A stretch of 32,000 bases of DNA, taken from assembly GCA_021498095.1 (NCBI GenBank), contig JAIZWK010000001.1, positions 3,720,001 through 3,752,000 on the forward strand, read 5' to 3'. Source of the DNA: Candidatus Harpocratesius repetitus (GTDB lineage Archaea > Asgardarchaeota > Lokiarchaeia > Sigyniarchaeales > Promethearchaeaceae). Both the position numbers and the translations under genes were made by a program. Shown here in pieces: positions 900 through 17,791 of this stretch. Every line of letters begins with the position of its first letter. Position 1 is the stretch's first letter. Below the pieces are notes generated by a model. It did not search any database. It was not told where the DNA came from and saw only the letters and a program-made list of their open reading frames with translations.

Positions 900-2792
900 A
901 TGGATTTTAACACATCATTGGAAAGAATGTACCAACTTTATTTAAAGATCGATCAAATGAAAAAAGTATCTCCTGGTTTTGGTGATTTTTATATAAAATA
1001 TCCGACTAAGTCGGGATTTGGCTTTTTATATATAATTCTAAGCCCACCAAATCGAAGGTATAAAGGAAAAAAAAAGGATGTTGACAAATTATTAAATAAA
1101 AGTGCCAAATCTAACAGAGTCATTGCTCCGAAAGATATTGATGAAATAATAAGATATTTATATCAAAACTTTCCAAAGATTATAAAATCTCGAAACGAAA
1201 TCCTTTCAAAAATTGAAGAAATAATTGCAGGTCTAAGATTAGAATTACATGTTTTCCATAATTTAAGGTTTCAATTTAAGGATCCAACAAAATCTGAAAT
1301 TATTGTATTTGAAAATTCTAATAACGGAGAATTTCATGCATATATCAATTTAGTTGGTATGGAAGAAAAAGGTTTAATCTTAGCTTATGAGCGCCAAATC
1401 AATTATATTCGAGAAAATTTAAAGAAAGGAATTCATCCTTTAAAACTAAAATCTCTCCCCCCATTACGTACAGGTGAAACTGATGTAGATTTTTCCAAAT
1501 CAAAATCATCTTCAAAAGCAACAAGAGAAAAACCGAAAGAAAGTGATTTAGTTCAAAAATTTAGAGAAAAAATAAAGCAAAAAAAAATTCAAGGTGAAGT
1601 TGATGAAGAACTTGCCTTTGAAACTGTAATTGATTTTAGTAATAAAGGAAGAGCGGCAATATCATTTAAAAATGAAGCAGAGATAGACAATACAAGCCAA
1701 ATTTCAGATGAAATTGCATCAAGTGATGTTATACAGAATGCTGAAACAAAAATGCTCAAAGATGCAATTAATGATGAAACTAAAATGGTAGGAAATACCA
1801 AATATTCCAATGATCAAACCGTTTCGAACCAGAATATGCATTTAAATGCAACAACACCCTCGAATATACCAATACCAACAAAACCATCACAGCCAAATCT
1901 TAGCCCAATACCTGAAAATGCCATACCAATTATTGATTCACCCCCATTTATTAATATTCCAAAACCTGCCCCACTTTCAAGAGAATCCGTAATATCAATA
2001 CCAGATAACAGAATAGAAAAAGGAGATTTAGCAAAACAAAATATTCAACTCAATCATAATAATAAAGATATACCATTCTCGATAGATTCATCTGCACCAC
2101 CACCATTGTCTCTTGAAGAAGGAGTCAAATTATCAAGCAAAATCACGTTTGATGAATATCAACAAATTCAAGAAGAAAGAGATCTTTTAAAAAATCAACT
2201 AGAACAAGTTACTGATGAATTAACAAAACAAATACAATCAAGAGACGAAAAAATTAAAGAATTGGATAAAAATCTCTCAATATTACATAATAAAAATAAA
2301 GAACTTGAAGATAAATATAATCAAATACAAAAAGAAACTCAAATAAAAATGAAAAATTTTCGAGATAAATTTCTAAAAATTCAAGAAAAAATTCAACCTT
2401 TAATTAAAGAAAACCAAGAGTTAAAGTTGAAATGGGAAAAAGAAGTCCACACTAAAAAAGTAACAGATAATATTCAATTAATTAATCAAAATCTCTCATT
2501 ACAAGAAGAAATTGACAAATTAAAAAACGTTAATGAAAAATTAATTAAGAAACTAAATGAACAAGAACAATTGATTAAGCGATTATCAGAATCGAAACAA
2601 AATCAGGAAATATCCAAAAATAAAAATGAAAATATTCAGAATGATCAAGAAAAAAAAGAAACAGCTCAAATATTAAAAAATGCACTTATGAATTCACTTC
2701 AAGAAAAACAAAAGCAACTTCAACATCAACAACAATTGGGACAAAACAATAAAGAAGTAAATAATAAAAGCAAAAAAAACAATGAAAATTAG
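900..2792 (+). CDS. Hypothetical protein: N-terminal globular domain, Pro-rich linker, long C-terminal coiled coil (630 aa)
   Basis: 1.9-kb ORF with AAGGAG upstream. Pro-rich segment PSNIPIPTKPSQPNLSPIP...SSAPPPL at about 1857-2107, then a heptad-like E/K/Q/L-rich region to the end. Confidence 0.85.
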   Translation: MDFNTSLERMYQLYLKIDQMKKVSPGFGDFYIKYPTKSGFGFLYIILSPPNRRYKGKKKDVDKLLNKSAKSNRVIAPKDIDEIIRYLYQNFPKIIKSRNEILSKIEEIIAGLRLELHVFHNLRFQFKDPTKSEIIVFENSNNGEFHAYINLVGMEEKGLILAYERQINYIRENLKKGIHPLKLKSLPPLRTGETDVDFSKSKSSSKATREKPKESDLVQKFREKIKQKKIQGEVDEELAFETVIDFSNKGRAAISFKNEAEIDNTSQISDEIASSDVIQNAETKMLKDAINDETKMVGNTKYSNDQTVSNQNMHLNATTPSNIPIPTKPSQPNLSPIPENAIPIIDSPPFINIPKPAPLSRESVISIPDNRIEKGDLAKQNIQLNHNNKDIPFSIDSSAPPPLSLEEGVKLSSKITFDEYQQIQEERDLLKNQLEQVTDELTKQIQSRDEKIKELDKNLSILHNKNKELEDKYNQIQKETQIKMKNFRDKFLKIQEKIQPLIKENQELKLKWEKEVHTKKVTDNIQLINQNLSLQEEIDKLKNVNEKLIKKLNEQEQLIKRLSESKQNQEISKNKNENIQNDQEKKETAQILKNALMNSLQEKQKQLQHQQQLGQNNKEVNNKSKKNNEN

Positions 2793-4075
2793 TTAATATC
2801 TTGCAGTAATTTTACTTTAACCTTCAGTTTTTCTGAAAGAGATTCTAATTCATCTTTCGATTTCTCAGGTGAAAATAGTAGAATATGTTCTTGTCCAAAT
2901 TCATCTAACTCAGAACAATAAGCATTAAATTTGTTCACTTGAAGATTAAAACATTCTGGTTTTTTTATATATTGTTTGATAAAATTATAAATACTCTTTA
3001 TCATCGGGATAATTATATTTACAGAAAAAACTGGTAAATCTGAAGTAGAAATTTCAAGCAAAATTTTATTATTTTGAATTACAATAACCCCAATTTTTTC
3101 CTTTTTAGTTAATTCTCCATTAATAGCATTACGAATTTGGTTTGCTCTCTCAGAGATATTACTCAAAATAATTTGCATTGCTTTAAATAAGGAAGAAATA
3201 AAATTAGGTTTAATACTTGTAAAAAAAAGTAGATTTTCATTAAAATTTAAAGATTTTACTATATTATCTTTGAATTCTCCCAATCTCTCTGGATTAACCA
3301 AATCAATTTTATGACATAATATAAAAAGATGAGGTTTTTCAGAACTTGATGAGACATGATTTAATTTAAACTGAATTTTTTTAAGATGATTGATAATATC
3401 ATGTGAGTTTGTCTCCCAATAGGGAGGATCAAAAACATACACAACCAAATCACATGCATCAAACGGATCAATCTCAGAATCAAACGAATCATATAAATAA
3501 TGTTCAATTTCTTGTCCTGCTAAATCTGCGATTCCAAGATCAAGATCGAAATAATCTATCTTATAATGTACTAATCCATATGTTGGTTCCATGGGTTTAT
3601 TTAATATTTCATCTGAAGTAGCGGATTCAAAGAAAATTTTTTTAATTGAGGTTTTACCCACTCCACTAGTCCCTAAAATCAATAACTTTCGAGACAATTT
3701 ATTAGAAAAAATATCATATGCGATCTGCTTGAAATACTCATTTCGTTGTGAATAATTAAGAGAAAAAAGATGAATCCCTTGTTTGTATAATTTTTCTTTA
3801 AAAGGTGCAATTTCTGATTGCTCGTCTTCATGAAATATAACAATTAACATTGAATATCCTAATTGCACAATTTTATCTTTTGGGCAAAAACTAATGATTA
3901 TTTTTTGTTGAAAGCGTAAATCGATAATTTCCGGTTGCTTTGTTTTGGAAATAGAATGAGACATAAGTACTTTATTAACTTCATCTTTTGATAGATGTAT
4001 TGATTTCGGAAAAGATTTCCGAATAATAGTTCCCATAGTTGAATCCCATTCAGTTAATACAATTCCGATAGGCAT
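2789..4075 (-). CDS. Rag/Gtr-like small GTPase with N-terminal longin/uDENN-like domain and C-terminal roadblock-like domain
   Basis: G1 GTSGVGKTS, G2 EPT, G3 DLAGQE, G4 HKID, G5 TSI; HKxD and TSI are Gtr1/RagA-type signatures. N-terminus GIVLTEWDSTMGTII..SFP fits a longin/uDENN start. The C-terminal ~110 aa has an alpha-beta-beta-alpha-beta-beta-beta-alpha roadblock pattern. Confidence 0.85.
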   Translation of the reverse strand: MPIGIVLTEWDSTMGTIIRKSFPKSIHLSKDEVNKVLMSHSISKTKQPEIIDLRFQQKIIISFCPKDKIVQLGYSMLIVIFHEDEQSEIAPFKEKLYKQGIHLFSLNYSQRNEYFKQIAYDIFSNKLSRKLLILGTSGVGKTSIKKIFFESATSDEILNKPMEPTYGLVHYKIDYFDLDLGIADLAGQEIEHYLYDSFDSEIDPFDACDLVVYVFDPPYWETNSHDIINHLKKIQFKLNHVSSSSEKPHLFILCHKIDLVNPERLGEFKDNIVKSLNFNENLLFFTSIKPNFISSLFKAMQIILSNISERANQIRNAINGELTKKEKIGVIVIQNNKILLEISTSDLPVFSVNIIIPMIKSIYNFIKQYIKKPECFNLQVNKFNAYCSELDEFGQEHILLFSPEKSKDELESLSEKLKVKVKLLQDIN

Positions 4076-4224
4076 CTTTCAAAATCGCTCTTTTCTTTTT
4101 GATCAAATATAGGAAAAATGAGCATAAATAATATTACATTTAAAATTCTTCTAAGATATAAAAAGAATTGTAAAATTGATATAAATGAAAAATTAATCTT
4201 ATTAATATTATTTCCAAAAAGAGA

Positions 4225-4731
4225 TTACCATAAAGAATCTGCAATATATTGAAACATTTCAACAATATTTTCACCAGTTTTTGCAGAAGTTGCAAAAACT
4301 TTTACATTATATTCAGATTCTAATTCTTTAACTACTTTTGATTCTTCTTCACTATTTAAGAGATCAATTTTATTCAAAGCTATTAAAAATGGAACATCTT
4401 TACCTGCATGTTTTCGAATATCCCCAATCCAAGGTTTGATGAAATCTGGAGTAATTCTATTATAATCTACGACAATTATGACAAAATTGCTATAGGATAA
4501 GTATTGTGAACGCATAGTTTCAAAACTTTTTTGTGATGCCAAATCCCATATTTGAACAATTAATTCATTTTTTTCTTTTTCACTCTTTTTTATAAAAGTA
4601 TACTCATAAAAATCAACGCCCAATGTCACTAAATAGGAATTTGAGAATGTTCCTTTGGTGAAACGGACAACAACTGAAGTTTTGCCCACTCCATCACTGC
4701 CAAGTAAGCAAATTTTTTTTTGAATTCTCAT
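4225..4731 (-). CDS. Rab-like small GTPase (168 aa)
   Basis: KKICLLGSDGVGKTS (G1), YLVTLGVDF (Rab effector-like G2), IWDLASQ (G3 variant), NKID (G4), SAKTGENI (G5). No C-terminal cysteine. Confidence 0.92.
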   Translation of the reverse strand: MRIQKKICLLGSDGVGKTSVVVRFTKGTFSNSYLVTLGVDFYEYTFIKKSEKEKNELIVQIWDLASQKSFETMRSQYLSYSNFVIIVVDYNRITPDFIKPWIGDIRKHAGKDVPFLIALNKIDLLNSEEESKVVKELESEYNVKVFATSAKTGENIVEMFQYIADSLW

Positions 4732-4748
4732 GATTAAATTTCATTCTC

Positions 4749-6230
4749 CTATACTATGGGAAGTAGTTCAATTTGTGGAAATCCTTTATCATAAATTGTC
4801 TTCATTGCAAACAAACTTGAGTTTCGAGGTTTTATGGAAAAAATCATTATAGTTCCGTGCCGTTCAATTACTTTTATATGTGTTGAAGCAATATAACTCA
4901 AATCTGCTGTTAATGTAGAATATTTTTCTAATTCATTTTTTTCATTTTTTGATGAGTTAATAATACCCAATTCAATAACATTTGAATTCCTTATTAACTT
5001 TAAGTGTTTATCAAAAAGTCCAATAGTTTTATTGAAATCTACCATGAATTGAAGATTATCATATGAAATACCAGCAAACACAGGTTGAAATTTGGAAATA
5101 CTTGAGAGTTTGGAATATGTATCAAAGAAAATTTCATTAAAGTTTTCATCGTCCACCTGACGAATATAAGGTCGAATTTCTTTTCTATCAGATATTTGAT
5201 TTTGAAGAATTTTCATATACTTGCTGATTCGATCTGTAGGTAAATAAAGAAACAATCTTTTTTTATCAAGTAGATCACTATTTATTCCATCGGATGCGCG
5301 AATTATGGCTCCACGTCCATTTTGAATAAATTGACAAAGTAGACCGATAAAAATCGAAGAAATAGAAGAAATTGGAACACTTGATTCCACTTCAAGTAAA
5401 TTAAATGTTCCAGGTCGTAATCCACCTCCATAAATTTCATCAAGTGCACGATTTCCTGTCGAAAAGAGATCTTCTTTATCAGTAGATGGTTCATACTGTG
5501 CAATATTAGTTAATTTCTCTTTTTTAAAGGGAGGTAAATATCTAAATTTATTCTGATAAAGTGTATAAGCATATTGTTTCTGTTTTCTTTCTACAGCACG
5601 AATTTTATTTATTTCTACTGTTCGAAATGTACGTCCTCCTATTTCACCATCACGTAAAGTAACAATTCCATCAACAATATAATCAAGAAATCCGTGTGTG
5701 TCTGATTCTGCGATTAATATTAATTTAGAATTACTTTGTCGTATAAATTCGGTAAAAAGAGTTTCCACTTGATCATTTTGATTACGCCCAGGCCCGATAA
5801 TCGCATCCCATGAATCAATAACAATTATTGGATTTTCATATTGAGCAACTTTCTCATAAATTATTTTTAAAAATTCAGGAATAGTCTGAAATCGAATTGT
5901 TTGCATTAAATGCTCTTTCATTTGGCTACCTTTAGGATCCTGCGTTGGAGGTATATAAGTTCGCGTTGCATCCAGAATATTTTCTGGAGCTAAACGATCC
6001 CTAAGCCAAGGAAACTGAGAATAAAGAGAAGAAGGAGCTACTCGAGTACTCAAATAAACAGGAGTAAATTCCTTAAAAAAAGATAATAAAGACATGGCAA
6101 AAGTTGTCTTTCCTACACCAGCACGACCTTTAAGAAGAAGATTATATCCTGTATCCTTCAATTTGAAGGCCGAAACAATTTCTGGAGGGATTAAAATATC
6201 ATCCTTATTTTTTTTCACTTTTTTTCCCAT
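4749..6230 (-). CDS. KaiC/RAD55-superfamily ATPase, GvpD P-loop-like, with an active N-terminal and a degenerate C-terminal RecA domain
   Basis: GYNLLLKGRAGVGKTT (Walker A), YLSTRV, LYSQFPWL, IVIDSWD (Walker B), DGIVTL, INKIRA. The second domain begins FSTGNRALDEIYGGGLRPG but has no Walker A. ATG at 6230 preferred; the track start at 6245 is GTG. Confidence 0.85.
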   Translation of the reverse strand: MGKKVKKNKDDILIPPEIVSAFKLKDTGYNLLLKGRAGVGKTTFAMSLLSFFKEFTPVYLSTRVAPSSLYSQFPWLRDRLAPENILDATRTYIPPTQDPKGSQMKEHLMQTIRFQTIPEFLKIIYEKVAQYENPIIVIDSWDAIIGPGRNQNDQVETLFTEFIRQSNSKLILIAESDTHGFLDYIVDGIVTLRDGEIGGRTFRTVEINKIRAVERKQKQYAYTLYQNKFRYLPPFKKEKLTNIAQYEPSTDKEDLFSTGNRALDEIYGGGLRPGTFNLLEVESSVPISSISSIFIGLLCQFIQNGRGAIIRASDGINSDLLDKKRLFLYLPTDRISKYMKILQNQISDRKEIRPYIRQVDDENFNEIFFDTYSKLSSISKFQPVFAGISYDNLQFMVDFNKTIGLFDKHLKLIRNSNVIELGIINSSKNEKNELEKYSTLTADLSYIASTHIKVIERHGTIMIFSIKPRNSSLFAMKTIYDKGFPQIELLPIV

Positions 6231-6446
6231 ATCTTGATCAATCACAACTGTAATGATTAATTAATCAACCCGCTACCCTATAAAATTTTCTTCTTTTCGT
6301 TAACAATTCAATTGTAATTAACGCATTTTTGATCTATTCACTAAATAATACTTTGATCTCTCCTAATAGTTTAAATATAGAACTACAAAGAACATGTATT
6401 TTTTAATTGTACAAAAATTTAATTCTAACTGTAATTTTATTTAAAT

Positions 6447-7910
6447 ATGCAATCGAATGAAAATTCCCTCGATTATGATTTCGATCTCACACCGATTTTT
6501 CGTCCAAAAAGTACAGTGATTATAGGATTATCTAGTCGTAATCCAGATCACCCAGGAAATGCAATGTTTTCAAAAAATCTTATTGAAATGAAGACAAAAA
6601 CATATGGAATTACACCTCGTGCCAATGAAATAGATGGCCATAAAGTTTATCAATCTTTAGACAAATTACCAGAAGTTCCAGATTTAGCGGTTGTAGCAGT
6701 TAGCGCAAGACATACATTACAAGTAATCAAAGAAATTGCGGAATTTGGCGTGAAAGGTGCAGTAATCATTGGAGGGGGTTTTGCAGAAATAGGAAAGGAA
6801 GGAAAAAAGAAGCAAGATGAATTAGTTAAATTTTGTATCGATAAAGGAATGCCTTTTATCGGACCAAATTGTATTGGAGTATACAGTCCTCCAATTGTCG
6901 ATACATTTTTCCTGCCTTCAGAAAGGCTTGTAAAACCAAAACAAGGAAATGTTGCAGTAATTAGTCAAAGTGGAGGTGTTTTGATCGATCAATTCTTTAT
7001 AAACTGTAAAGAGCGCGATATTGGAATTAGCACTGCAGTTTCTATCGGTAACAAAGCAATGGTAAATGAAGCTATGTTACTGAAATATTTTGAGAAAGAT
7101 CCAAACACTGATGTAATCGCTTTTTATTTAGAAGGATTTCATCCAGGTGATGGAAGGAAATTTTGTGAAACTGCCCGCTTATCTAGAAAAGATGTTGTAG
7201 TTTATTCAGGTGGAATTTCAAGTGCTGGAAAAATTGCAGCGGGATCTCATACCGGTTCTCTTGCAGCAGATGGAAGTATTATGAAAGGAGCATATAAACA
7301 ATTTAGTGTTATAAATCCAACAACTGAACAATATCTGACAAACACTTTGAAAACCTATTCAATGCTTGCAAATCCCTTTAGAAAATACTCAACTATGTCA
7401 ATACATCGTGATAAAATTGCCGTTTTATCCGTTTCTGGAGGGCATGGTGTAATTTGTGCAGATATTATGGACAAATATGGTCTTAAACTCACTAAATTTA
7501 CAGATAAACAAAAAGAAGACATCAGTTTCCTTTTAAATCCAGTAGCATCGCGCATTGCGGGATTAAATAACCCAATTGATATTACAGGGTCAGGTACTGA
7601 TGATGATATAGTCAATATATTAGAATACTTACTAAATGCACCAAATGTCGAAATGATATTCACTTTATTAGTTCCACAAGTTCCCCAACTTTCAATGCGA
7701 TTAGGTCGCTCTATCATGCAGATAGGCAATAAATATCGAAAACCTATAATTGCGTACGTTCCTTGGACCCCAAAATATGATTTAATTCGTGATGCTTTGG
7801 AAATGCACTATATTCCGTGCGGTCATACAATTGAAGAAACCGTTGAGATGGGAACCGCGTTAATTTTAAAGGGTGAAGGCGGAATACGTAAAAAAATGAG
7901 CACTCTGTGA
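6447..7910 (+). CDS. acdA: ADP-forming acetate/acyl-CoA ligase alpha subunit (CoA-binding plus succinyl-CoA-ligase-like domains)
   Basis: IFRPKSTVIIG CoA-binding start, PDLAVVAV, IGPNCIG, VAVISQSGG, AVSIGNKA, phospho-His motif AAGSHTGSLA, LNNPIDITG. No ATP-grasp domain is fused. Confidence 0.85.
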   Translation: MQSNENSLDYDFDLTPIFRPKSTVIIGLSSRNPDHPGNAMFSKNLIEMKTKTYGITPRANEIDGHKVYQSLDKLPEVPDLAVVAVSARHTLQVIKEIAEFGVKGAVIIGGGFAEIGKEGKKKQDELVKFCIDKGMPFIGPNCIGVYSPPIVDTFFLPSERLVKPKQGNVAVISQSGGVLIDQFFINCKERDIGISTAVSIGNKAMVNEAMLLKYFEKDPNTDVIAFYLEGFHPGDGRKFCETARLSRKDVVVYSGGISSAGKIAAGSHTGSLAADGSIMKGAYKQFSVINPTTEQYLTNTLKTYSMLANPFRKYSTMSIHRDKIAVLSVSGGHGVICADIMDKYGLKLTKFTDKQKEDISFLLNPVASRIAGLNNPIDITGSGTDDDIVNILEYLLNAPNVEMIFTLLVPQVPQLSMRLGRSIMQIGNKYRKPIIAYVPWTPKYDLIRDALEMHYIPCGHTIEETVEMGTALILKGEGGIRKKMSTL

Positions 7911-7932
7911 TAAAAATAAGAAATTTTCTCAC

Positions 7933-7950
7933 TATATTATTTATATTATT
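7933..7950. repeat. Tandem duplication TATATTATT x2
   Basis: Read directly at 7933-7941 and 7942-7950. Confidence 0.7.
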
Positions 7951-7967
7951 CTTTTTTTCTTGCTAAC

Positions 7968-7987
7968 TGTTGATAAGTGTTGATAAG
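7968..7987. repeat. Perfect direct repeat TGTTGATAAG x2, candidate operator
   Basis: Read directly at 7968-7977 and 7978-7987, about 65 nt upstream of the GTPase-wHTH gene. Confidence 0.75.
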
Positions 7988-8051
7988 TTTTAATTAAAGA
8001 AGATCAAAAGTTATACCAAAGAATTTAGCAATAACTCACATCTTTTTATTG

Positions 8052-9563
8052 ATGGTAAAGAAAATAGTGTTAGTAGGATCGAGCTCAGCTGGAAAATCCA
8101 CACTGAGAAAATGGTTTTTCGAAGGGGAAAATATCTTTAAATTATTGGAAAATCCATTAGAGCCGACAATTAGTTATGAAAACAAATCTTACCGTTTCAT
8201 TCAAGAATTATATGTGTTCGATTTAGCCGGTCAAGAAGTAGATAGATGGTTTGGGAATCAGCAAGAAATTTTTGATGAAAGTGAAGTAATTATTAATGTT
8301 ATTGATGCTCGTAGCGCTCCAAAAATAATTACAGATTACATTACAAAAGCATTACCATTACAATCTAGCCGAGTGAAAGATGCGGATATCTTTTTTCTAA
8401 TTCATAAAGTTGATCTTATTGATACATTTCAGCAGGATAAAATAACCAAGGCTTTAAACGAACTAAAACGCAAAATAAATGAACAAGAAGGTGTTAGTTT
8501 TAAATGGTATTTTACCTCTATAAAACCATCCTATTTAGTTAGCACAATAAATGCTTTCGCAGATATTTTTAAAATATCAGGTCTTGATCGAGAAGCAAAA
8601 TTGAATATTAAATTGGTTCGCCTGAATACTGAGTTATTCCAAACACTTTCTGAGAAACACGAAGTTTCGATGGAAAATTTATCATTATTGCTAAAAGGAA
8701 CTTATTCTAAAATACAAAGCTTGGTCACATCTTATAAAGATTCAGGATTATTAGAAACAAAAGAAAAAAATGGAGTAATATTTGTTTCATTGACGAAAAG
8801 GGGAGAATCCTATTATGAACAAGTTATTAAAAGTATTGAATTGTTGTTTAAAGAAGAATTACATGAAAAGATTTCAGAAGAAGTGCCTTTTGAAGAAAAA
8901 ATTCAAATACCTTCTTATTGGATTTATGGAATTATGATTAGTGACTCAAATGGAAGAACATTATTAATTGCAGAAACATCAGATAACAGTTTGAAATCAA
9001 TATTAAATCGAGCAAATAACCCACAATTCGATCTTGAGTTAATTCCGATGTTTTTGAATGCAATGTCAAAATTTGCTGAAGAAATAAATGTTAAAAATTT
9101 ATCTAGTTTTCAAATTCAAGGCGGAAATTTACAAATGTCTTCATTATCTCGAGGAAATATAACATTTACTGTATTTTCAAATCCAGAATTTAAAATAGAA
9201 TTGGTTCAAGATGAAATAACTGCAATTTTTGACGAATTCTTTAATAATAATTTAAAATATATTAATGAATTTGAAAAATCAGGAAATGCTACTCCTTTTA
9301 TGGAATTTATTCCTGAAATTAGGGAAAAGATAGAATTAGTCATTAAGAATTACGTTAAAATTTTAAAAGAAATCTCATATTTCAGTTTTGATGAAGTAAA
9401 ACGGTTATATGATGAACTTTCTCATGTAAATGAAGATAAATTAACACTAGAAGAACAATTAAAGATAAAATCGCTAAAAGTCAAATTACTAGAAACTATA
9501 TTAAAAGAAAATGCTAAAGAATTTCTTGCAATAGAAGAAGATATACGTTCATGTATCAAATAA
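8052..9563 (+). CDS. Rag/Gtr-like GTPase fused to a MarR-like winged HTH and a longin domain
   Basis: G1 GSSSAGKST, G2 EPT, G3 DLAGQE, G4 HKVD, G5 TSI. Central LFQTL..VSMENLSLLL..SKIQSLV..SGLLE...VSLTKRGE fits a wHTH. C-terminal YGIMISDSNGRTLL..LIPMFLNAMSKFAEEI..PFMEF fits a longin. ATG at 8052 follows the TTG at 8049. Confidence 0.85.
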   Translation: MVKKIVLVGSSSAGKSTLRKWFFEGENIFKLLENPLEPTISYENKSYRFIQELYVFDLAGQEVDRWFGNQQEIFDESEVIINVIDARSAPKIITDYITKALPLQSSRVKDADIFFLIHKVDLIDTFQQDKITKALNELKRKINEQEGVSFKWYFTSIKPSYLVSTINAFADIFKISGLDREAKLNIKLVRLNTELFQTLSEKHEVSMENLSLLLKGTYSKIQSLVTSYKDSGLLETKEKNGVIFVSLTKRGESYYEQVIKSIELLFKEELHEKISEEVPFEEKIQIPSYWIYGIMISDSNGRTLLIAETSDNSLKSILNRANNPQFDLELIPMFLNAMSKFAEEINVKNLSSFQIQGGNLQMSSLSRGNITFTVFSNPEFKIELVQDEITAIFDEFFNNNLKYINEFEKSGNATPFMEFIPEIREKIELVIKNYVKILKEISYFSFDEVKRLYDELSHVNEDKLTLEEQLKIKSLKVKLLETILKENAKEFLAIEEDIRSCIK

Positions 9564-9761
9564 AGAATAGAAAAATAATTTCAATTTGATCTTTGATTTG
9601 GATGTCTATAACAATCATTCTTTTAAGTCCAGTAAAATTTGAAGCAGATTCTTTTTTTTCAGCCACAGTTAATAGAATTCTATCAGAATAGAATGATGGA
9701 ATTTTTATTGATGGCAGACTTTTAATCATTAGTTAAACTAAAAAAAAAGAAGGGAAAATAA

Positions 9762-10793
9762 TTGGTCCTTAAGCGCGCAACTCAAAAAACTGAAATACAA
9801 TCGCAGATCTCATCTAAATATAAGATAATCGTTGAAGGAATCCATAAAACATACTTGTTAGGTACCACTGCAGTCCCCGCATTAAGGGGAGTTGATCTAA
9901 AAATTAAACCTGGTGAATTTGTAGGTTTAATGGGTCCATCGGGGTGTGGCAAAACAACACTTTTAAATCTAATTGGGGGTCTTGATTATCCTACTCGAGG
10001 AAAAATATACTTAGATAATCAAGATATGTCAAGATTAGATGAAAATCAACTTGCAGATTTACGTCGAGACAAAATAGGTTATGTCTTTCAATTCTATAAC
10101 CTTCTCCCTCTGTTAACTGCTTTAGAAAATGTAATGATACCCCTTCATTTTCAAGGTAGATTATCAAAACGTGCAAGAAAACGAAAAGCAATGGAATTAT
10201 TAAAACTTGTAAAACTTGATGATCGCGCTGATCACACACCCTCTGAATTATCTGGTGGAGAACAACAAAGAGTTGCAATTGCCCGTGCATTTGCTAATGA
10301 TCCATCCATAGTATTACTTGATGAACCAACAGGTGATTTAGATTCGAAAACTGGAATTGAAATATTGAATTTATTACGAGATCTGAACAGAAAAGGTGCC
10401 ACTTTTATTGCAGCAACCCATGATGCAGCGGTTTCTGAATATTGCTCCAGAGTAGTACACTTAAGAGACGGAAAGATAATTACAGGATTAGAAATCTCTG
10501 GTCTGAAGGAAACTCCTGAAATGCGTGAAGCGCGATTAAAGCTTCAAGCTCAATATAAAGAAATGTGTGAAAATAAGATTTTATCAATAGTTAGAGAACA
10601 AATACAACAGCAAAAGTATGAAATCCGATTGGCTTTTATAAAAGAGCAAATTGATGATGAAATCATTACTAATTTACCATTGCATTTTGATGATTTAGTT
10701 GAAGAATTAATTGAACGTAAAGAATTTAACGGTCAAGTTAAAAGTGGTGTTATTTATATACAAAATCCTCAACAAGGATCTGATATCGTTTAG
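9762..10793 (+). CDS. ABC transporter ATP-binding protein, LolD/MacB/SalX family, with a ~100-aa C-terminal PCI-like winged-helix extension
   Basis: Walker A GPSGCGKTT, Q-loop GYVFQFYNLL, signature LSGGEQQR, Walker B LLDEPTGDLD, H-loop ATHD. TTG start. Confidence 0.93.
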   Translation: MVLKRATQKTEIQSQISSKYKIIVEGIHKTYLLGTTAVPALRGVDLKIKPGEFVGLMGPSGCGKTTLLNLIGGLDYPTRGKIYLDNQDMSRLDENQLADLRRDKIGYVFQFYNLLPLLTALENVMIPLHFQGRLSKRARKRKAMELLKLVKLDDRADHTPSELSGGEQQRVAIARAFANDPSIVLLDEPTGDLDSKTGIEILNLLRDLNRKGATFIAATHDAAVSEYCSRVVHLRDGKIITGLEISGLKETPEMREARLKLQAQYKEMCENKILSIVREQIQQQKYEIRLAFIKEQIDDEIITNLPLHFDDLVEELIERKEFNGQVKSGVIYIQNPQQGSDIV

Positions 10794-10835
10794 TACTTTA
10801 AGAAGATTTACTTCAAGGAGATTGAAATAGCATCA

Positions 10836-13703
10836 ATGAATACATTTCTTTGGACTTATGCAATTAAAGATTTATTTCGTCAGAAAACCCGAACTTTATT
10901 CGGTATTTTGGGGATAACTGTAAGTTTACTTCTATTAACTTCTGTTTCTATTATCACAGACTCAGTCTCTTATAATTTTATTGACTTTCTTACACTCGAT
11001 GCTGGAACACAGGATATGGTTCTTTCAAAAAGACCAATTTCCACTAATGATGAAAATTTTACAGGATATTTTGATTTTCGAGAAATAATTCCAAAAATTC
11101 ATAATGCAACTAATGAAATAGGGAATATAGTTCCTAGAGGATATTTTAGAAGTGAGATTTTTAACGGAAATGAAACAATGGTGTCAAATCAAAACAAGAT
11201 GTGGATATGCGCAATAGATATTGCTTTAGAAGAAGAAATAAAATTTGGTTCATTTCAAAATTTGAATAATAACCTAAATATTTCAAATGGTTTACCTGTT
11301 AATCAATGTATAGTTTCTGAAAGTTATGCTAGAACAAATCAACTTAATATAGGAGAAAAAATCCATCTTTTCGTTAAACCATTAAACTCAACAATAAACC
11401 TTACTATTGCAAGCACATATGGTCAAAAATTGAAATTTCCTATCGACGAAGAACCTGAAATCATAGTAGATCTCACTTGGTGGGGAAACATTGCAGATTT
11501 ATTTAATAATAATTCTAATTTTGCTGAAAATAATACATGGAATTATAAAGTTAATAGATTACTACTCAAACTCAGTGATGCTGAAGGAGTGTATGATGTT
11601 CGCAATGTTAAAGGAACAGAGAGTTATATTGCTCAGATAGGTGCAAAAATCTTAACAGAATTAGGATTAGATTCGTGGAAAATGGATTATCCAAAATTAG
11701 AGTTATTGTTTGTATCTGAATTTTTAACTTTAACTATGAATATTTTATTTATCACCATTGGAATTATTTCTATGCTTATTTCAGGTATTTTAATTAATGC
11801 GATTCTTTCAACTTCTGTAGAAGAGAGAATTAAGGAGTTTGGAATAAATAGAGTACTTGGTGCACGAAAAACATATAATCTGAAATTAATCTTAATTCAA
11901 AGTTCATTTATTTCGTTTAGTGGAACAACTTTAGGAATTATTTTAGCCGCTTTAGCAATAAGATATATTGGAATACCATTTGGAGAAAGATTGCTGGTTG
12001 AAAATGGGATTTATACTTCAATTGCCTTTTTTATAGATCCAATGACAATCATTTCCTCTTATCTTATAGGTGTAGGAGTCTCAATGGTTGTCTCTATTTC
12101 TCCAGCATTAAAAGTTATGCGAATGAAAATTGTCGAAAGTATTAATCCATATAGAACATCTGATGAAGTATACCATATGGAAAAAGAAGGAAGTGCCAAT
12201 GTCCGCCTTATAATTATTGGAATTATATTGGCTGCAAATGCTGGGTTCATCTACTTCTTGCTTCCGCGAATAATTATTTCTTTTCAATTCGGAATTCTTG
12301 CCTCAGTTTTAATTATCACCATGATGGTATTCCTAATCGGCGTTTCAGTAATGGCAATCGGATTTATGCCGATATTAATTCGATTACTTGTGAAGATATT
12401 TGAAACATTTAATCAAAAACTGATGAATATTGTAAGAATCACAGTTCACAGATATCAACGTCGCAATTTGTCGACAAGTATCATGTTTGTACTCTCTTTT
12501 TCCTTTATAATTTTTACAACAAGTATGGTTCAAATCCAGATTAAACAAGTAGGTGGTTTAATTCAATATGAAGAAGGTTCAGATTTAGTCCTTCGACCAG
12601 ATAGCTATGATTTAAGAGCACCAACAGTAGCAATCACAGAAAAATTATTGCAAATAGATGGAATTGAGCGGGTTTCTTCAGTAATTGCAAGTGTAAACGA
12701 TTTAGAAGACATATATTCTGAAGAAAATAAAGATTTTGAAATCACCCTAGGGGATTATATTAACTTTCAATCTACTGAAGTAAGGATGTATGCAGTAGAT
12801 GAAAATTATATCGATACAGTTTATCAAAATTATATCATATTTACAGAAGGAAATAAAGAGTCGGCATTTAATGCTCTTTACAATACTTCTGAAATAGGAG
12901 TTATAATTTCTGCTTCAATAGCTTCAAGTCTCAGAATTCATTTAGGAGATATTGCAAGATTAACAATCACTAGAGGCACGGAAGAAGAACCATTTCTTTG
13001 CAGAATTGTTGGAGTTGCAAAGTCCATGCCCGGGATGCAATCACGCTTCAGTGAAAGCGGAATTGGTGCAGCTTTTAGAGCCGGTGGTGTTTTGATATCC
13101 CCAGAGCACTATACAGAATGCATGAACATTCCTGGTGGAAATGATGCATTTTTAGATAAAATCTTTATTAAAGTAAAATCAGGTTATGATCCTTTAAATG
13201 TTGCATCCAATATTGAATCTAAATTAAAAAATAATTATAAAATAGAAGTGGATGTTACCTCTCAAGGAATTAATGAAGCAGAGCAAGCATTTTTAGTTGT
13301 CAAATATTTATTTCTAGCAATTTTAATTGGAACTGTACTAATTGCATTATTTGGATTAATCAGTTCATCATATTCATCTATCTTAGAAAGAAAGCGAGAA
13401 ATTGGAATTTTACGAACATTAGGTCTTCATGGTCGAGAAATTGAACACTTATTCTTATTAGAAAACTTAATACTACTATTATCAAGCTCAACTTCAGGAG
13501 GTATTATCGGATATTTAATGGCGCTTGGTTTGAGTGAAAATATGACCCTTTTTATCCGAAGTCCGCGAATTATTGCCGTGCCATGGGATATTATCTTGAT
13601 TGTTTATTCAGTATCACTAGTTACTTTATTTATTGGAATGAGATGGTTAATGCGCAAATTAAGAAAGCAAAATCTAATAGAGATATTTAGAGAAACATTA
13701 TAA
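10836..13703 (+). CDS. ABC permease, FtsX/MacB (SalY/LolE-like) family, tandem two-module type (permease A)
   Basis: N-terminal RQKTRTLFGILGI before TM1, a large extracytoplasmic domain, SVEERIKEFGINRVLG and ILERKREIGILRTLG FtsX motifs, and many hydrophobic helices. Confidence 0.92.
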   Translation: MNTFLWTYAIKDLFRQKTRTLFGILGITVSLLLLTSVSIITDSVSYNFIDFLTLDAGTQDMVLSKRPISTNDENFTGYFDFREIIPKIHNATNEIGNIVPRGYFRSEIFNGNETMVSNQNKMWICAIDIALEEEIKFGSFQNLNNNLNISNGLPVNQCIVSESYARTNQLNIGEKIHLFVKPLNSTINLTIASTYGQKLKFPIDEEPEIIVDLTWWGNIADLFNNNSNFAENNTWNYKVNRLLLKLSDAEGVYDVRNVKGTESYIAQIGAKILTELGLDSWKMDYPKLELLFVSEFLTLTMNILFITIGIISMLISGILINAILSTSVEERIKEFGINRVLGARKTYNLKLILIQSSFISFSGTTLGIILAALAIRYIGIPFGERLLVENGIYTSIAFFIDPMTIISSYLIGVGVSMVVSISPALKVMRMKIVESINPYRTSDEVYHMEKEGSANVRLIIIGIILAANAGFIYFLLPRIIISFQFGILASVLIITMMVFLIGVSVMAIGFMPILIRLLVKIFETFNQKLMNIVRITVHRYQRRNLSTSIMFVLSFSFIIFTTSMVQIQIKQVGGLIQYEEGSDLVLRPDSYDLRAPTVAITEKLLQIDGIERVSSVIASVNDLEDIYSEENKDFEITLGDYINFQSTEVRMYAVDENYIDTVYQNYIIFTEGNKESAFNALYNTSEIGVIISASIASSLRIHLGDIARLTITRGTEEEPFLCRIVGVAKSMPGMQSRFSESGIGAAFRAGGVLISPEHYTECMNIPGGNDAFLDKIFIKVKSGYDPLNVASNIESKLKNNYKIEVDVTSQGINEAEQAFLVVKYLFLAILIGTVLIALFGLISSSYSSILERKREIGILRTLGLHGREIEHLFLLENLILLLSSSTSGGIIGYLMALGLSENMTLFIRSPRIIAVPWDIILIVYSVSLVTLFIGMRWLMRKLRKQNLIEIFRETL

Positions 13704-13798
13704 AATAGTTAATAATTAGGAGGCGTGAGAAAATTACTATAAAAAGAAAATTTAAAATACTTTTGCATGAGTTTTTTATTCAAAAAAACCGAAAAAGC

Positions 13799-16700
13799 AT
13801 GAAACAAAGATTAATATTGACTATTCTATTATTCTGCTTTCTTTCACCTTCAATTTTACTTAGTTTTCAAAATAATTTTATTAAAATAAGATTAGAAAAT
13901 AATAATAATAATAAAACCAAACCATCAATTTTTTCTCCAATTTCATCTGACATATCTGGAAATGAATTATATGCAGAGCAAATTAAGTTTAATATTGGTG
14001 GATCTCACAATTTAATTCAACAATCTTATTGTACTAATGACACCAACGCACTAGATGGAATTGATTTATCAGATCCTGCATTTTCTGAAGCTGCATTTTT
14101 TTTAACTCTATCGAATGGAATTATCCCTGAAATCAATCCTTATCCAATTAACAACAAGAATCCGAATTATATACCCATTTCTATGAATTACTTCAAGTTT
14201 TATCTATATTTTGAAGGAGGAAGTATTTCGAAAAATATATCCACCCAACAAGATAGAATATTAGAAATTCTTAAAAATAGACTTAAAATAGATTTTCTCC
14301 TTTTAAATAAAACTGAAGATCCTAATAAGGGATATTTATATGAATATTATGGTTTGACACCAGAATGGAGTAATTATTTTGATTTAACTTTATCAAATGT
14401 ACCTCAAGATGGATATTGGAAAACACTAGATTATGACCGAATTCTCTCAAATTCCTATTTAGATACACATTATATTCAAAGTTCATTACTTTACTTGAAG
14501 AAATTTGATTTTTTAAAGAATGGTATAAATTCAATGATTTATGATCAGATTAAATTATCATTTGATCTCTCTCCTCTACAGAGCAGTAATTCACTATTTA
14601 ATGTAGCATCTTTTCAAAATACCAATGCTGATTCAAATGATCAATCAAATACAAATTCAAGCGAGAAATCCTATATTAATAGAACAAATAATTTAATTTT
14701 CTTTTCTGTACAATATGAAGGAATTGAAAATTCTGAAATACAACAAAAATCTCACATTTATCATTTCAATCTTTTTGAAGCGTTAAATTTTAATGGTTCT
14801 GAAATTTCAATATCTTCTAAATGTTATAATTCTCCAGACGGAATATCATTAAGTAAAATCGATATTGGGTTAATATTTGGAGAAGTTACTAAAATGGAAC
14901 CAGATATTTTTCCATTCAATACAGCGAGCTTCGACCAGATTGAAAATCTTCTCTATATGTTTAATGAAGATGCAGATTTTTCGTTTTTTGATGATTACAG
15001 TTTCAAAGTCAAATGGATTACAAAAAATTCGTTAACCATGTTATCAACTGTTCCTGTAAATTATAAAAATAGTTCAGATTATGTAAATTTCTTAGAATTA
15101 CTTATGGATTTTCCAGAACTGGCATCATTACTTAATATTTCAATGGATGTTTCGGGAGGTTTTGGATTTGGATTATCTGGCAGTTATATTGCTCCAATTG
15201 AAGAGCTTTCATTCGATTATATCATTGCTCCAGTTGAACCATCTCTTGAAATTAGGAAAGAGATTAAATCAGGCAAACCAACAAATGTTTTAGATGCAAA
15301 CAATAGTCCAACAATAGATGTCGTTGTAAGTAATCCAAATAACTTCTCAGTTTGGGGAAAAGAACTTAATTTAACTGCATTAGGAATTACAAACAATCCA
15401 ACAGCAAAATTAACTATTTTAGGTTTAGATCAAAATATGTTTGAATTAATGGGTTATAACAGTGATTTAATTGTTAATATTTTAGAATCTCTAGGTTATA
15501 CCATTGAAGATCTCTTTCATCAAGACAATCCGCGCTTTTTTATGTTGGATTTGAACAATACAGGAAACTATAATACGCTTTATCCAAATCTTCTAGATCT
15601 AAATGTTAATAGATTATTTCCTTACAGTCCTGAATTTACTCAACTTCTTATCGATAATGCAGATGCATTTGGTAGAATTGCATTGAACCCACAGATTTGG
15701 AATTCTTCAGAAAGTATCTTCAATCCAGAGAATTGGAAATTAGACCCAGGTGAAAACTTCTCAATTACAATAAATAGTGGTCTTTTAAATGTGAGCGATA
15801 AATATGCTAAGATTCAAGGATTCTCATTAAATACTCGATCACCTCATGAACCAATTATTGCAATAGGTCAAGAAAATATAGAAACTTCAGCCAATAATAC
15901 ATTTTTTCCAAATGATGATTTATTCTGGGAAATTTCTTCTGAATACTACGGAAATACATACCAGATTCAACAATATCTTTTTTTTAATAATAATACAAAA
16001 ATTCTTCATATTAATAATAATACAATAAGTCTGGATGCGATTTTTCTAAATTTAATTGCAAAGAGTAGCAATCAAGATACAAGTTTCCAAATTGAAATCT
16101 ACAATCATGATTATACAGGAGAAAACAGAGATGGATTTCAATCAATTTTAAGTGGAACTATAGGTAATGAAATGACTCAGATTAATTTAACACTATCAAA
16201 TAATGACTACAATTTAAGCAATTTCTGGGATAAAAATCAGAATATGGATATTTTGTTCAGAATTACATATGAAAATAATGAACCCTTCAACTTCTATCTT
16301 GATTTTATTCAAGTAGAATTTCAAGATCGTATAAATCAAAGAATTTTTCATAATCAATCTCAAATACTTTATTGTTCATCATATGGAAATAATCAGTACT
16401 TCAGTAAATCGAACTCAATTACATTAATGACTTCTCAAAGTGCAATTATATCAATATCAAGCCAAATTTCATTAATAGATAATAAATCTTCACTGTATTT
16501 GTATAACGTATCCTTAGAAAATATTGGAACACTTCCTGCATATAATATTACGGTAAAATTGCTCCAGATGGGCAGAATTCCGAATTTACTTAATCATACA
16601 CTAATACAAATTGCAAATAAAACAACATTTCAAAGTATTGCTGGAAATTATTCTTTAACAGAAGGAATTTTATCATTTTCATATAGAAATTTAACAAACC

Positions 16701-17791
16701 AGCAGAAAATTCAAAATATTTCATTGTTATTTTATCTTCCAAATAGTATTATTTTTCCTTCACTAAATGTAAGTTGGAATAACGAAATTCAATTTAATGA
16801 AACAAATACTCAAATGAATGCAATTTCATATCAAGATTTCCTTTCATTCCCTTTAGATTATAATAAATCGAGAAATTATAATCCACTATATCAATTATTA
16901 ATCGAATATCTCAATCCAGATGATTCTAGTTATTATAAAATAAATCAGAATGTTTCTATATTTATTCGTATTTCTAACTTAAATTCAGAGTCGATTTTTG
17001 GAATAGATCTTCAATTTAGCAAATCTTTTGAAGGATGGCAATATTTGAACCAATCAGATCATATTTATATAAATGAATTAAGTTATAATCAATCTAAAAC
17101 GATTGAATTAATCTTTTTTAAGATAAATACTCGTGGATATTTGCTCCCTTCAGCATTCCAAATTCATTGTGAAGAGAATAGTTTATTACAAGTATTTTTA
17201 CCGCCACCTCTTTTACTAGGTCATTTTGAGGTAGAATTAACTAAAGCAATTTCCCAAGATGTGTTAATAACAGGGGATTATATTGAAATTACAATAAATA
17301 TTAAGAATTCAGGAACAATTCCTTTATCGGATGTAATTATTGATGATGCGGATTCATATTTTGCAGGAGCATTTATCTTATATGAAGGTATAACACTTCA
17401 AGAAATTAGTTTTCTTGACATAAATCAAACCTTTGAATTTCATTATTCGCTTAGAGCTTTACATTCAAAGGGTTCTTATAGTATACGTCCTGCAGAAATA
17501 TCATATTTCTTCGGATCTTTATATTACGTTTATAGTAATTCGATTTTAGTTAAAATTCAAGAGCCTTATATATTGATAGTAGCAAAAATTATCAGTCCGA
17601 TATTAGTAGGTGGATTAGCGTTATTTTTAACATATAAGTATAAAATTCATTATTCAAAAGAAGATTTTGAATATCAACGCCGTGAAAGTTTGTTATTTGG
17701 TCAATCATTAAGAGAATCTTCATGGCATCGAAAGAATCTAACAGAATTTTTCAATGAGCAAATGGAAAAAGGTGGAAAAAAAAATGAGTAA
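13799..17791 (+). CDS. Large membrane-anchored cell-surface glycoprotein with C-terminal DUF11/CARDB/BatD-like Ig domains
   Basis: Signal-like MKQRLILTILLFCFLSPSILL from ATG 13799 (track start 13763 is TTG). Many N-x-S/T sequons. VELTKAISQDVLITGDYIEITINIKNSG is a DUF11-type motif. TM helix at about 17570-17640, then a ~50-aa charged tail. Confidence 0.85.
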   Translation: MKQRLILTILLFCFLSPSILLSFQNNFIKIRLENNNNNKTKPSIFSPISSDISGNELYAEQIKFNIGGSHNLIQQSYCTNDTNALDGIDLSDPAFSEAAFFLTLSNGIIPEINPYPINNKNPNYIPISMNYFKFYLYFEGGSISKNISTQQDRILEILKNRLKIDFLLLNKTEDPNKGYLYEYYGLTPEWSNYFDLTLSNVPQDGYWKTLDYDRILSNSYLDTHYIQSSLLYLKKFDFLKNGINSMIYDQIKLSFDLSPLQSSNSLFNVASFQNTNADSNDQSNTNSSEKSYINRTNNLIFFSVQYEGIENSEIQQKSHIYHFNLFEALNFNGSEISISSKCYNSPDGISLSKIDIGLIFGEVTKMEPDIFPFNTASFDQIENLLYMFNEDADFSFFDDYSFKVKWITKNSLTMLSTVPVNYKNSSDYVNFLELLMDFPELASLLNISMDVSGGFGFGLSGSYIAPIEELSFDYIIAPVEPSLEIRKEIKSGKPTNVLDANNSPTIDVVVSNPNNFSVWGKELNLTALGITNNPTAKLTILGLDQNMFELMGYNSDLIVNILESLGYTIEDLFHQDNPRFFMLDLNNTGNYNTLYPNLLDLNVNRLFPYSPEFTQLLIDNADAFGRIALNPQIWNSSESIFNPENWKLDPGENFSITINSGLLNVSDKYAKIQGFSLNTRSPHEPIIAIGQENIETSANNTFFPNDDLFWEISSEYYGNTYQIQQYLFFNNNTKILHINNNTISLDAIFLNLIAKSSNQDTSFQIEIYNHDYTGENRDGFQSILSGTIGNEMTQINLTLSNNDYNLSNFWDKNQNMDILFRITYENNEPFNFYLDFIQVEFQDRINQRIFHNQSQILYCSSYGNNQYFSKSNSITLMTSQSAIISISSQISLIDNKSSLYLYNVSLENIGTLPAYNITVKLLQMGRIPNLLNHTLIQIANKTTFQSIAGNYSLTEGILSFSYRNLTNQQKIQNISLLFYLPNSIIFPSLNVSWNNEIQFNETNTQMNAISYQDFLSFPLDYNKSRNYNPLYQLLIEYLNPDDSSYYKINQNVSIFIRISNLNSESIFGIDLQFSKSFEGWQYLNQSDHIYINELSYNQSKTIELIFFKINTRGYLLPSAFQIHCEENSLLQVFLPPPLLLGHFEVELTKAISQDVLITGDYIEITINIKNSGTIPLSDVIIDDADSYFAGAFILYEGITLQEISFLDINQTFEFHYSLRALHSKGSYSIRPAEISYFFGSLYYVYSNSILVKIQEPYILIVAKIISPILVGGLALFLTYKYKIHYSKEDFEYQRRESLLFGQSLRESSWHRKNLTEFFNEQMEKGGKKNE

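Follow-up and report, generated by a model that had tools for sequence, protein, structure and literature searches.

We analyzed a gene of Candidatus Harpocratesius repetitus and found that it encodes a Rag-like GTPase in which a MarR-like winged helix-turn-helix (wHTH) stands between the G domain and a longin-type domain. The gene lies in a 32,000-nucleotide stretch of contig JAIZWK010000001.1 (positions 3,720,001–3,752,000), which we call the window, and coordinates are positions in the window. Its open reading frame (ORF) spans 8049–9563 on the forward strand and gives a protein of 503 amino acids (aa) from the ATG at 8052, the likely start because homologues begin MxKK. The protein belongs to a class named GXLX, and its architecture is certain: a Rag-type G domain, the MarR-like wHTH, an acidic linker, the longin-type domain, and a four-helix tail. 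Our preferred reading, which we hold tentatively and at slightly less than even confidence, is that it acts as a GTP switch at the protein level, with the wHTH serving as a partner-binding or in-cis regulatory module. The gene, its parts, and the elements immediately downstream were as follows; AF2 stands for AlphaFold2 and pLDDT for its per-residue confidence score.

8052–9563, forward strand: GXLX-class Rag-like GTPase gene (ORF and translation; full-length homologues at 35–92% identity)
8052–8579, forward strand: Gtr1/RagA-type G domain, aa 1–176 (Pfam PF04670, PDB profile matches, invariant motifs)
8076–8102, forward strand: G1 motif
8220–8237, forward strand: G3 motif, DLAGQE
8403–8414, forward strand: G4 motif, HKVD
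8514–8522, forward strand: G5 motif, TSI
8607–8843, forward strand: MarR-like wHTH, aa 186–264, with a putative recognition helix at 218–230 and wing at 234–247 (AF2, Foldseek, VIA-align, PDB profile)
8844–8921, forward strand: low-confidence acidic linker, aa 265–290 (net charge –4; pLDDT below 50 at 267–286)
8922–9287, forward strand: longin-type domain, aa 291–412 (topology in AF2, Foldseek)
9288–9560, forward strand: four-helix C-terminal tail, aa 413–503 (AF2 helices 420–442, 446–457, 466–485, 488–502)
9652–9659, forward strand: run of eight T downstream of the GXLX stop, a possible archaeal termination signal (sequence)
9677–9694, no strand: palindrome ATTCTAT-N4-ATAGAAT, with the core M1, TTCTAW-N4-WTAGAA, at 9678–9693 (sequence)

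The name GXLX comes from the catalogue of small GTPases of Prometheoarchaeum syntrophicum MK-D1 by Tran et al. 2024 (Commun Biol 7:273, PMC10933270), who gave it to three MK-D1 paralogues; in their key, G stands for GTPase and L for longin, and the other domains are "of unknown function." Their supplement prints alignment rows for WP_162306644.1-GXLX (PMC10933270), which are the sequence of DSAG12_01734, the MK-D1 orthologue of the window protein. The two proteins are homologous over their full length at 42% identity, share the GXLX order, and belong to the same family. The original prediction had stated that no characterized Ras-superfamily GTPase with a built-in HTH was known; the class turned out to be catalogued in MK-D1, but its middle domain had been left without a name. 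Both X parts are nameless in the catalogue, whereas here the first X is a MarR-like wHTH. This identification seems new to the searched literature, in which a query for Asgard GTPases with a winged helix and a longin domain matched only work on the ESCRT system. Besides naming the middle domain, we document clade-specific genomic links, among them the fixed association of one clade with an ABC/surface-protein operon.

We aligned 23 full-length homologues with the window protein. Identity to it was 92% in Candidatus Harpocratesius, 50% in Lokiarchaeum ossiferum, and 42% in MK-D1 DSAG12_01734 (99% of the length). A scan of 1.84 billion cluster representatives returned 335 matches at E ≤ 1e-3, of which about 60, each standing for a cluster at 50% identity, were full length at about 500 aa, the most distant with 23% identity; the GXLX ORF is therefore not a chance ORF. 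The survey of the architecture across Asgard genomes suggested by the original prediction placed it in one order only: a wHTH-plus-longin profile matched in 61 of 75 sampled genomes of that order (Lokiarchaeum, MK-D1, and relatives) and in none of 226 genomes from other Asgard families. A maximum-likelihood tree of 67 members resolved three groups. The window protein and its MK-D1 orthologue fall in a clade of 15 (SH-aLRT 97) that has a bigger sister clade (SH-aLRT 98), and the small, divergent third group includes the second GXLX copy of the window genome. Below, clade A denotes the orthologue clade of the window protein, labels of the form L0xx denote fetched homologous loci, and labels of the form P0xxx denote database proteins. 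Six such proteins of 330–375 aa (P0126, P0129, P0136, P0138, P0163, and P0173) cover the wHTH, longin, and tail part only, with P0136 and P0163 beginning near the G5 motif and the final G-domain helix; such proteins may be paralogues without a G domain or gene calls that were cut short.

The G domain matched Pfam Gtr1_RagA (PF04670) over aa 4–172 with 60.7 bits against a cut-off of 22, and the Arf, Roc, and Ras scores for the same domain were far below this. All five G motifs were intact in the window protein and invariant in the 23 homologues (GSSSAGKST 9–17, T39, DLAGQE 57–62, HKxD 118–121, here HKVD, and TSI 155–157), which together with the Pfam score bears out the complete, Rag-like G domain originally predicted at about aa 1–175. 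The HKxD motif, replacing NKxD, and TSI are hallmarks of Rag GTPases; TSI can also be read in the RRAGA and RRAGC rows that Tran et al. 2024 print in their supplement (PMC10933270). In a profile search against the PDB, RagA and Gtr1 ranked at the top with E about 4e-18, and MarR-family chains matched at 186–276 with E about 1e-3. Foldseek with the whole model also placed full-length Gtr1 and RagA first, in alignments of 300–430 columns, and matched the recent Lokiarchaeal Rag-like structures 8yl2 and 8zla/9m28 (LokiRagO, LokiRagM; chains of about 290–320 aa). A literature search found no publication on PDB entries 8yl2, 8zla, and 9m28.

The likeness to eukaryotic Rag/Gtr proteins (RagA–D, Gtr1/Gtr2) thus covers the G domain, which is best matched by RagA/Gtr1 and carries HKxD at G4 and TSI at G5, as well as the presence of a longin/roadblock-superfamily domain C-terminal to it. 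In Rag/Gtr proteins, however, the roadblock directly follows the G domain, whereas in the GXLX protein an 80-aa wHTH and a 26-aa linker (aa 186–290) intervene; the C-terminal domain has the longin and not the roadblock strand order and no N-terminal helix, and a further 90-aa helical tail is attached. Rag/Gtr proteins are obligate heterodimers of Rag paralogues, whereas for GXLX the hints of a partner all come from the gene neighborhood. Among the window ORFs scanned with Pfam, we found no Ragulator- or TOR-type gene.

Structure prediction with AF2, using the homologue alignment, gave a mean pLDDT of 74.5 for the whole protein and 79 for a separate model of residues 178–418. In both models, aa 186–264 fold as H-b-H-H-b-b-H (H, helix; b, strand), and in the whole-protein model the domain is joined to the last G-domain helix through about 10 residues modeled at pLDDT above 80. 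Foldseek related the domain to MarR, PadR, and ArsR regulators with a root-mean-square deviation (rmsd) of 1.5–4 Å over 75–95 residues, and VIA-align, run against 48,161 representative chains, gave Z about 12 and an rmsd of 1.9–4 Å over 74–100 residues. The family profile of the wHTH matched almost only MarR-type/wHTH chains in the PDB, with a best E of 1.6e-4. The MarR-like wHTH originally placed at about 8620–8830 was thus recovered at 8607–8843, and the AlphaFold/Foldseek check proposed for the middle domain returned this fold. The LTxRG wing motif of that prediction is present as LTKRG in the window protein but reads LTEKG or LLEKG in most relatives. No Pfam wHTH family reached its cut-off in the window protein or any of the 23 homologues, and the MarR hidden Markov models (HMMs; PF01047, PF12802) matched three of the 23 at E ≤ 1 (best E, 0.073).

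That both the fold and the weak profile similarity lead to MarR, PadR, and ArsR DNA-binding regulators only is one of the grounds for an alternative, close to what had originally been proposed: a one-component GTP-switched transcription factor, in which a dimer formed through the longin domain and tail would place two wHTHs on a palindrome near the ABC-operon promoter or its own promoter, with binding gated by the nucleotide. We regard this as possible, with a probability well short of even, because the high prior for DNA binding by a MarR-like wHTH has to be discounted for charge, conservation, and the behavior of the promoter palindrome. The net charge of the GXLX wHTH is between –1 and +1 (+1 in the window protein; mean +1.0 in its clade), compared with a mean of +4.5 and a range of –1 to +10 in 14 segments of this genome that match the MarR HMM. 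In GXLX, the recognition helix and wing range from neutral to acidic; the sister clade has an acidic recognition helix. Conserved positions are confined to the hydrophobic core and to T248 and G251; positions in the recognition helix and wing vary, no Lys or Arg is conserved there, and K, E, or G stands at the position of the MarR wing Arg. The wHTH is also the least conserved domain: identity to the window protein is about 30% in it and about 42% in the longin domain plus tail. Compared with the MarR family, the domain shares the wHTH fold, the LTxxG motif after the wing, and the PDB profile match, but it stays below every Pfam cut-off, lacks the N- and C-terminal dimerization helices, does not conserve the Arg of the wing Asp-x-Arg, and is near neutral in charge. 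A genome scan at E ≤ 1e-3 gave 18 MarR and 15 MarR_2 matches, and the GXLX gene was not among them, which again counts against a MarR-type transcription factor. The caveat in the original prediction, that the wHTH could be a protein-interaction module as in ESCRT-II, was well placed.

Residues 291–412 have the topology b-b-a-b-b-b-a-a (a, helix) in both AF2 models, and Foldseek matched the domain to the Mon1-Ccz1 longin (5ldd_D, template-modeling [TM] score by target 0.51), zeta-COP (3tjz_C), LAMTOR, MK-D1 roadblock proteins, and also 7yh1. Matches to roadblock proteins were just as good (5y3a_G, 0.60; 9jq8, 0.59), and longin and roadblock are therefore not told apart by the Foldseek result alone; as modeled, the domain is a member of the longin/roadblock superfamily with a longin-type strand order. 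The predicted longin domain at about 8915–9340 was in this way located at 8922–9287, and the predicted helical tail was found as four AF2 helices within aa 413–503. The longin-type domain is the most conserved portion of the C-terminal half, and the tail carries a conserved K-x-K-L-L-E motif in which K476, L479, and L480 are invariant. Pfam and PDB sequence searches with the longin domain and tail returned nothing meaningful, and a language-model atlas search with residues 178–503 found only a Promethearchaeota cluster at 0.79, below the usable level. The protein ends in SCIK (9549–9560), with Cys at –3; this ending is shared solely with the 92%-identical homologue and is neither a CaaX box nor conserved. 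An Rce1-like CPBP protease gene lies at 26726–27412 on the reverse strand.

Downstream of the GXLX gene we found a conserved operon, with the following genes.

9762–25633, forward strand: conserved downstream operon (Pfam; adjacent to GXLX in 14 distinct loci)
9762–10793, forward strand: ABC ATPase (Pfam)
10836–13703, forward strand: FtsX/MacB permease, 955 aa (Pfam)
13763–17791, forward strand: giant 1342-aa protein with a TRAP_beta-like domain near the C-terminus (Pfam)
17754–22712, forward strand: S8 subtilase, 1652 aa (Pfam)
22709–25633, forward strand: second FtsX permease (Pfam)

With its two FtsX/MacB permeases and its large proteins (13763–22712), the operon looks like an FtsEX-style system for large extracellular proteins. 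In all fetched clade-A loci (14 distinct ones, including L. ossiferum and MK-D1), the GXLX gene stands immediately upstream of it on the same strand and the operon has the same order, although GXLX protein identity across these loci spans 31–61%; the operon-linked copies all fall in one clade of the tree. Gaps of 90–400 nt separate the GXLX gene from the ABC gene, and the 198 nt of the window contain, in order, the T run, the 18-bp palindrome, a TATA-like box (9701–9709, 6 nt from the palindrome), and a Shine-Dalgarno-like GAAGGG, so two transcription units are likely. A promoter-like gap behind the GXLX gene in 14 loci and the confinement of the linked copies to one clade would both fit a regulator and its target transcription unit, and they belong among the arguments for a transcription factor. 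The operon also occurs without the GXLX gene. In sister families, the homologous operon is preceded by unrelated genes, for example one for an RNase III-like protein, and in genome G310 of the window's own family it has no adjacent GXLX gene; GXLX is therefore an accessory regulator rather than one of the core subunits.

Some features of these loci were seen only in parts of the family. Lokiarchaeum-type loci have a small ORF of 114–117 aa without a Pfam match directly upstream of GXLX (L056:9646–9999, L058:5627–5971, L060:4480–4830), and MK-D1-type loci have one of 161–163 aa (L057:9166–9657, L061:5393–5878); the 140-nt gap upstream of the GXLX gene in the window holds no such ORF. In L059, a 15-bp AT-rich unit (AATATTTGTAAATAA-like) is repeated in tandem about nine times within the GXLX–ABC gap (3681–3990). 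A search for RNA runs covering 7900–11000 of the window found none, only DNA runs, of which one is probably the source sample.

The palindrome in the gap, whose conservation at the ABC promoter is striking, was considered as an operator for the GXLX protein. The window, L058, L060, L057, and L079 each have a single exact copy of M1, which in every case lies just upstream of the ABC gene's TATA-like box; there is no further copy within 213 kb of those five clade-A loci. The 4.36-Mb genome contains 15 exact copies, only two of which are intergenic, the one in the window and another at genome position 3135297. M1 is also found upstream of the ABC gene in five loci of a second family (f2; L066–L070) that have no adjacent GXLX gene, and it is conserved even though the wHTH is the fastest-evolving part of the protein. 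Conversely, L036 and L057 differ in the palindrome at the ABC promoter although their recognition helices are almost the same. We therefore rejected M1 as the GXLX operator: being present in loci without the gene, it is not assignable to the GXLX protein, and another factor can explain it, so that it is likely an operator for another regulator. At the ABC promoter of L036, the place of M1 is taken by a second type of palindrome, M2 (TTTGCA-N4-TGCAAA), which also occurs in L038 and L039 and, with one added spacer base, in L063, these three loci carrying variants. M2 was set aside as an interpretable operator, since the pattern is too loose and heterogeneous. Exact TTTGCA-N4-TGCAAA has just two copies in the genome, at 2648097 and 2648154, 57 bp apart in one intergenic region. 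Taken with the charge and conservation of the wHTH, the palindrome result weakens the transcription-factor reading.

The poor conservation of the wHTH beyond its hydrophobic core, and an operon that works without a GXLX gene in other families, would also be expected if the domain were a relic or a rigid spacer that itself binds no ligand and the adjacency to the ABC operon reflected co-expression or inherited gene order. This we consider improbable. A well-folded wHTH has been kept in both major clades and across about 60 clusters at 50% identity, the adjacency to the operon persists down to 31–36% identity, and a shorter GTPase with a G domain and a wHTH-like domain, described below, seems to exist too.

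On the other side of the GXLX gene, the window contains a divergent block that includes a second Rag-like GTPase.

2789–6245, reverse strand: divergent GTPase cluster (Pfam, alignment A5)
2789–4075, reverse strand: longin-G-roadblock (LGR) Rag-like GTPase, 428 aa (Pfam, alignment)
4225–4731, reverse strand: Ras/Rab-like GTPase, 168 aa (Pfam)
4749–6245, reverse strand: GvpD/KaiC-like ATPase, 498 aa (Pfam)
6447–7910, forward strand: CoA-ligase-like gene following the divergent block

Alignment A5 shows that the LGR proteins begin with a longin-like segment, continue with an intact G domain of the Rag type, and end in a roadblock-like segment, an order that is called "LGR" in Tran et al. 2024 (PMC10933270). 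The block adjoins GXLX in five loci (the window, L037, L056, L058, and L060), with the LGR gene about 4 kb from GXLX. In 12 sister-clade loci, the GXLX paralogue directly follows a gene for a 435- to 450-aa LGR homologue, at distances from a 17-nt overlap to 38 nt apart; the LGR homologues are translationally coupled to these paralogues (L040–L055). The gene order suggests a Rag-style heterodimer of the GXLX protein with the LGR GTPase, in which opposite nucleotide states would constitute the signal as in RagA/RagC and Gtr1/Gtr2. Intact Rag-type G motifs in both proteins fit such a pair, as does the prediction that an operon-encoded Rag-like pair of MK-D1 dimerizes through roadblock domains (Tran et al. 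2024, PMC10933270). The same study predicted AF2 homodimers through longin or roadblock domains for longin-containing GTPases (PMC10933270), however, no LGR gene lies near GXLX in the MK-D1-type loci of clade A, and gene adjacency is in itself weak evidence of binding. Co-folding GXLX residues 178–503 with the LGR protein scored 0.03 against a mark of 0.32, a result that we used neither for nor against the pairing. Judged from gene order, the heterodimer is conceivable but on the unlikely side, and it would be compatible with either a DNA-binding or a protein-binding wHTH.

The sister-clade genes (L040–L055) lie in islands of GTPases and two-component proteins, surroundings that are those of a signaling complex and speak for a protein-level switch. 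Pfam annotation of the island in L054 (628–15399) showed a receiver domain that stands alone, a pair of PAS/GAF histidine kinases, a protein resembling Roadblock/LAMTOR3, a longin protein with weak similarity to folliculin, a coiled-coil protein, and two Rag-like GTPases of about 290 aa. No output domain is attached to the receiver, and in the Pfam annotation of this island wHTH-like domains are seen in the Rag-like GTPases only, a point in favor of a transcription factor. The existence of wHTH–roadblock two-domain proteins in other archaea lends further support of this kind: an ESM Atlas cluster from Bathyarchaeota contains proteins of about 194 aa with Pfam HTH_24 and Robl_LC7. Like GXLX, they have a winged helix followed by a roadblock/longin-superfamily domain, but they belong to another phylum and lack a G domain, and only their roadblock part aligned to GXLX (residues 112–224 of the 178–418 model, TM 0.35). 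That the Rag-like GTPase is itself the transcription factor, binding DNA in a nucleotide-dependent manner, controlling the adjacent operon and, in the paralogues, possibly forming the output of the kinase/receiver islands, nevertheless appears rather doubtful to us.

The GTPases of about 290 aa (L054:2710–3582 and L054:12117–12995, both on the reverse strand, and P0079, P0127, P0135, and P0151) bear a weak likeness to a winged helix in their C-terminal 110 residues, with a match to Pfam HTH_45 (E 0.005) and profile matches to wHTH regulators (E 2.5e-4). Profile–profile hhalign to the GXLX wHTH gave a suggestive E of 0.001, and single-sequence hhalign was too weak. By sequence they look like a short G–wHTH form without the longin domain or tail, which suggests that the G domain and wHTH may be a recurring unit.

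Building on the architecture, G motifs, conservation, phyletic range, and synteny observed here, we infer a model in which the GXLX protein would be a GTP/GDP switch at the protein level. In this model, the longin domain and tail would provide a dimer or partner platform, like the roadblock domain in Rag GTPases, and the G domain, with the wHTH tethered to its last helix, would form a head that is sensitive to the bound nucleotide. The wHTH itself may have been retooled from a DNA reader to a partner-binding or in-cis regulatory module, and the output would be control of the neighboring envelope machinery or, around the paralogues, of the networks of histidine kinases, receivers, and GTPases. 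By analogy, such retooling may have precedents in the winged helices of ESCRT-II and in the DUF742 protein of actinobacterial conservons. Conservons encode a histidine kinase alongside a small GTPase, an HTH-like DUF742 protein, and a roadblock protein, the last of which is the GTPase-activating protein (GAP) of the GTPase (PMC11343762; PMC9769811, PMC13621833). The DUF742 protein MfpC, annotated as a DNA-binding HTH, was found experimentally to be the guanine nucleotide exchange factor (GEF) for the conservon GTPase (PMC11343762), and Wuichet and Søgaard-Andersen described further links of small GTPases to wHTH or receiver proteins (PMC4316618). The GXLX system resembles the conservons (CvnA–D, MfpB–E) in that Ras-like GTPase, HTH-like, and roadblock modules travel together with a link to histidine kinases, and the sister-clade GXLX genes also lie among histidine kinases, receiver, and roadblock proteins. 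The difference is that the conservon modules are separate proteins of the MglA/MglB lineages, whereas here they are fused in one Rag-like chain.

Several observations weigh against the protein-level switch. Prokaryotic MarR-like wHTHs fused to signaling domains usually bind DNA. The best 50 VIA-align rows were all wHTH regulators or other DNA-binding wHTH proteins and included no protein-binding winged helix. The charge argument against DNA binding is a weak one because four of the 14 control segments also have a net charge of +2 or less, and in several members of clade A the first wing strand has a basic (K/R)TKK stretch. Local transcription factors are typically encoded where the GXLX gene lies, just ahead of an operon that has a TATA-like box of its own, and the candidate partners of a protein-level switch are nominated by gene order alone. 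Finally, the DUF742 HMM (PF05331) does not match the GXLX gene, and its sole match in the genome (E 0.14) lies elsewhere; we therefore rejected homology of the GXLX wHTH to DUF742, and the parallel with the conservons is one of analogy.

In eukaryotes, Rag GTPases form the nutrient switch that acts on TORC1, and their Asgard relatives serve the reconstruction of how Rag-type signaling arose. GXLX is a lineage-specific experiment in which a bacterial-type winged helix bridges a Rag-type G domain and a longin platform, in a family tied genetically to an envelope transporter/surface-protein operon or to two-component islands. Because the cultured Lokiarchaeia MK-D1 and L. ossiferum both have orthologues, the role of the wHTH can be tested with recombinant protein and culture transcriptomics. 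If it binds DNA, the family would provide a direct GTPase-to-promoter switch in the closest archaeal relatives of eukaryotes; we know of no precedent for a characterized direct GTPase-to-gene switch. If it binds proteins, GXLX would be a fused, tractable analogue of the actinobacterial systems of GTPase, HTH-like GEF, and roadblock GAP.

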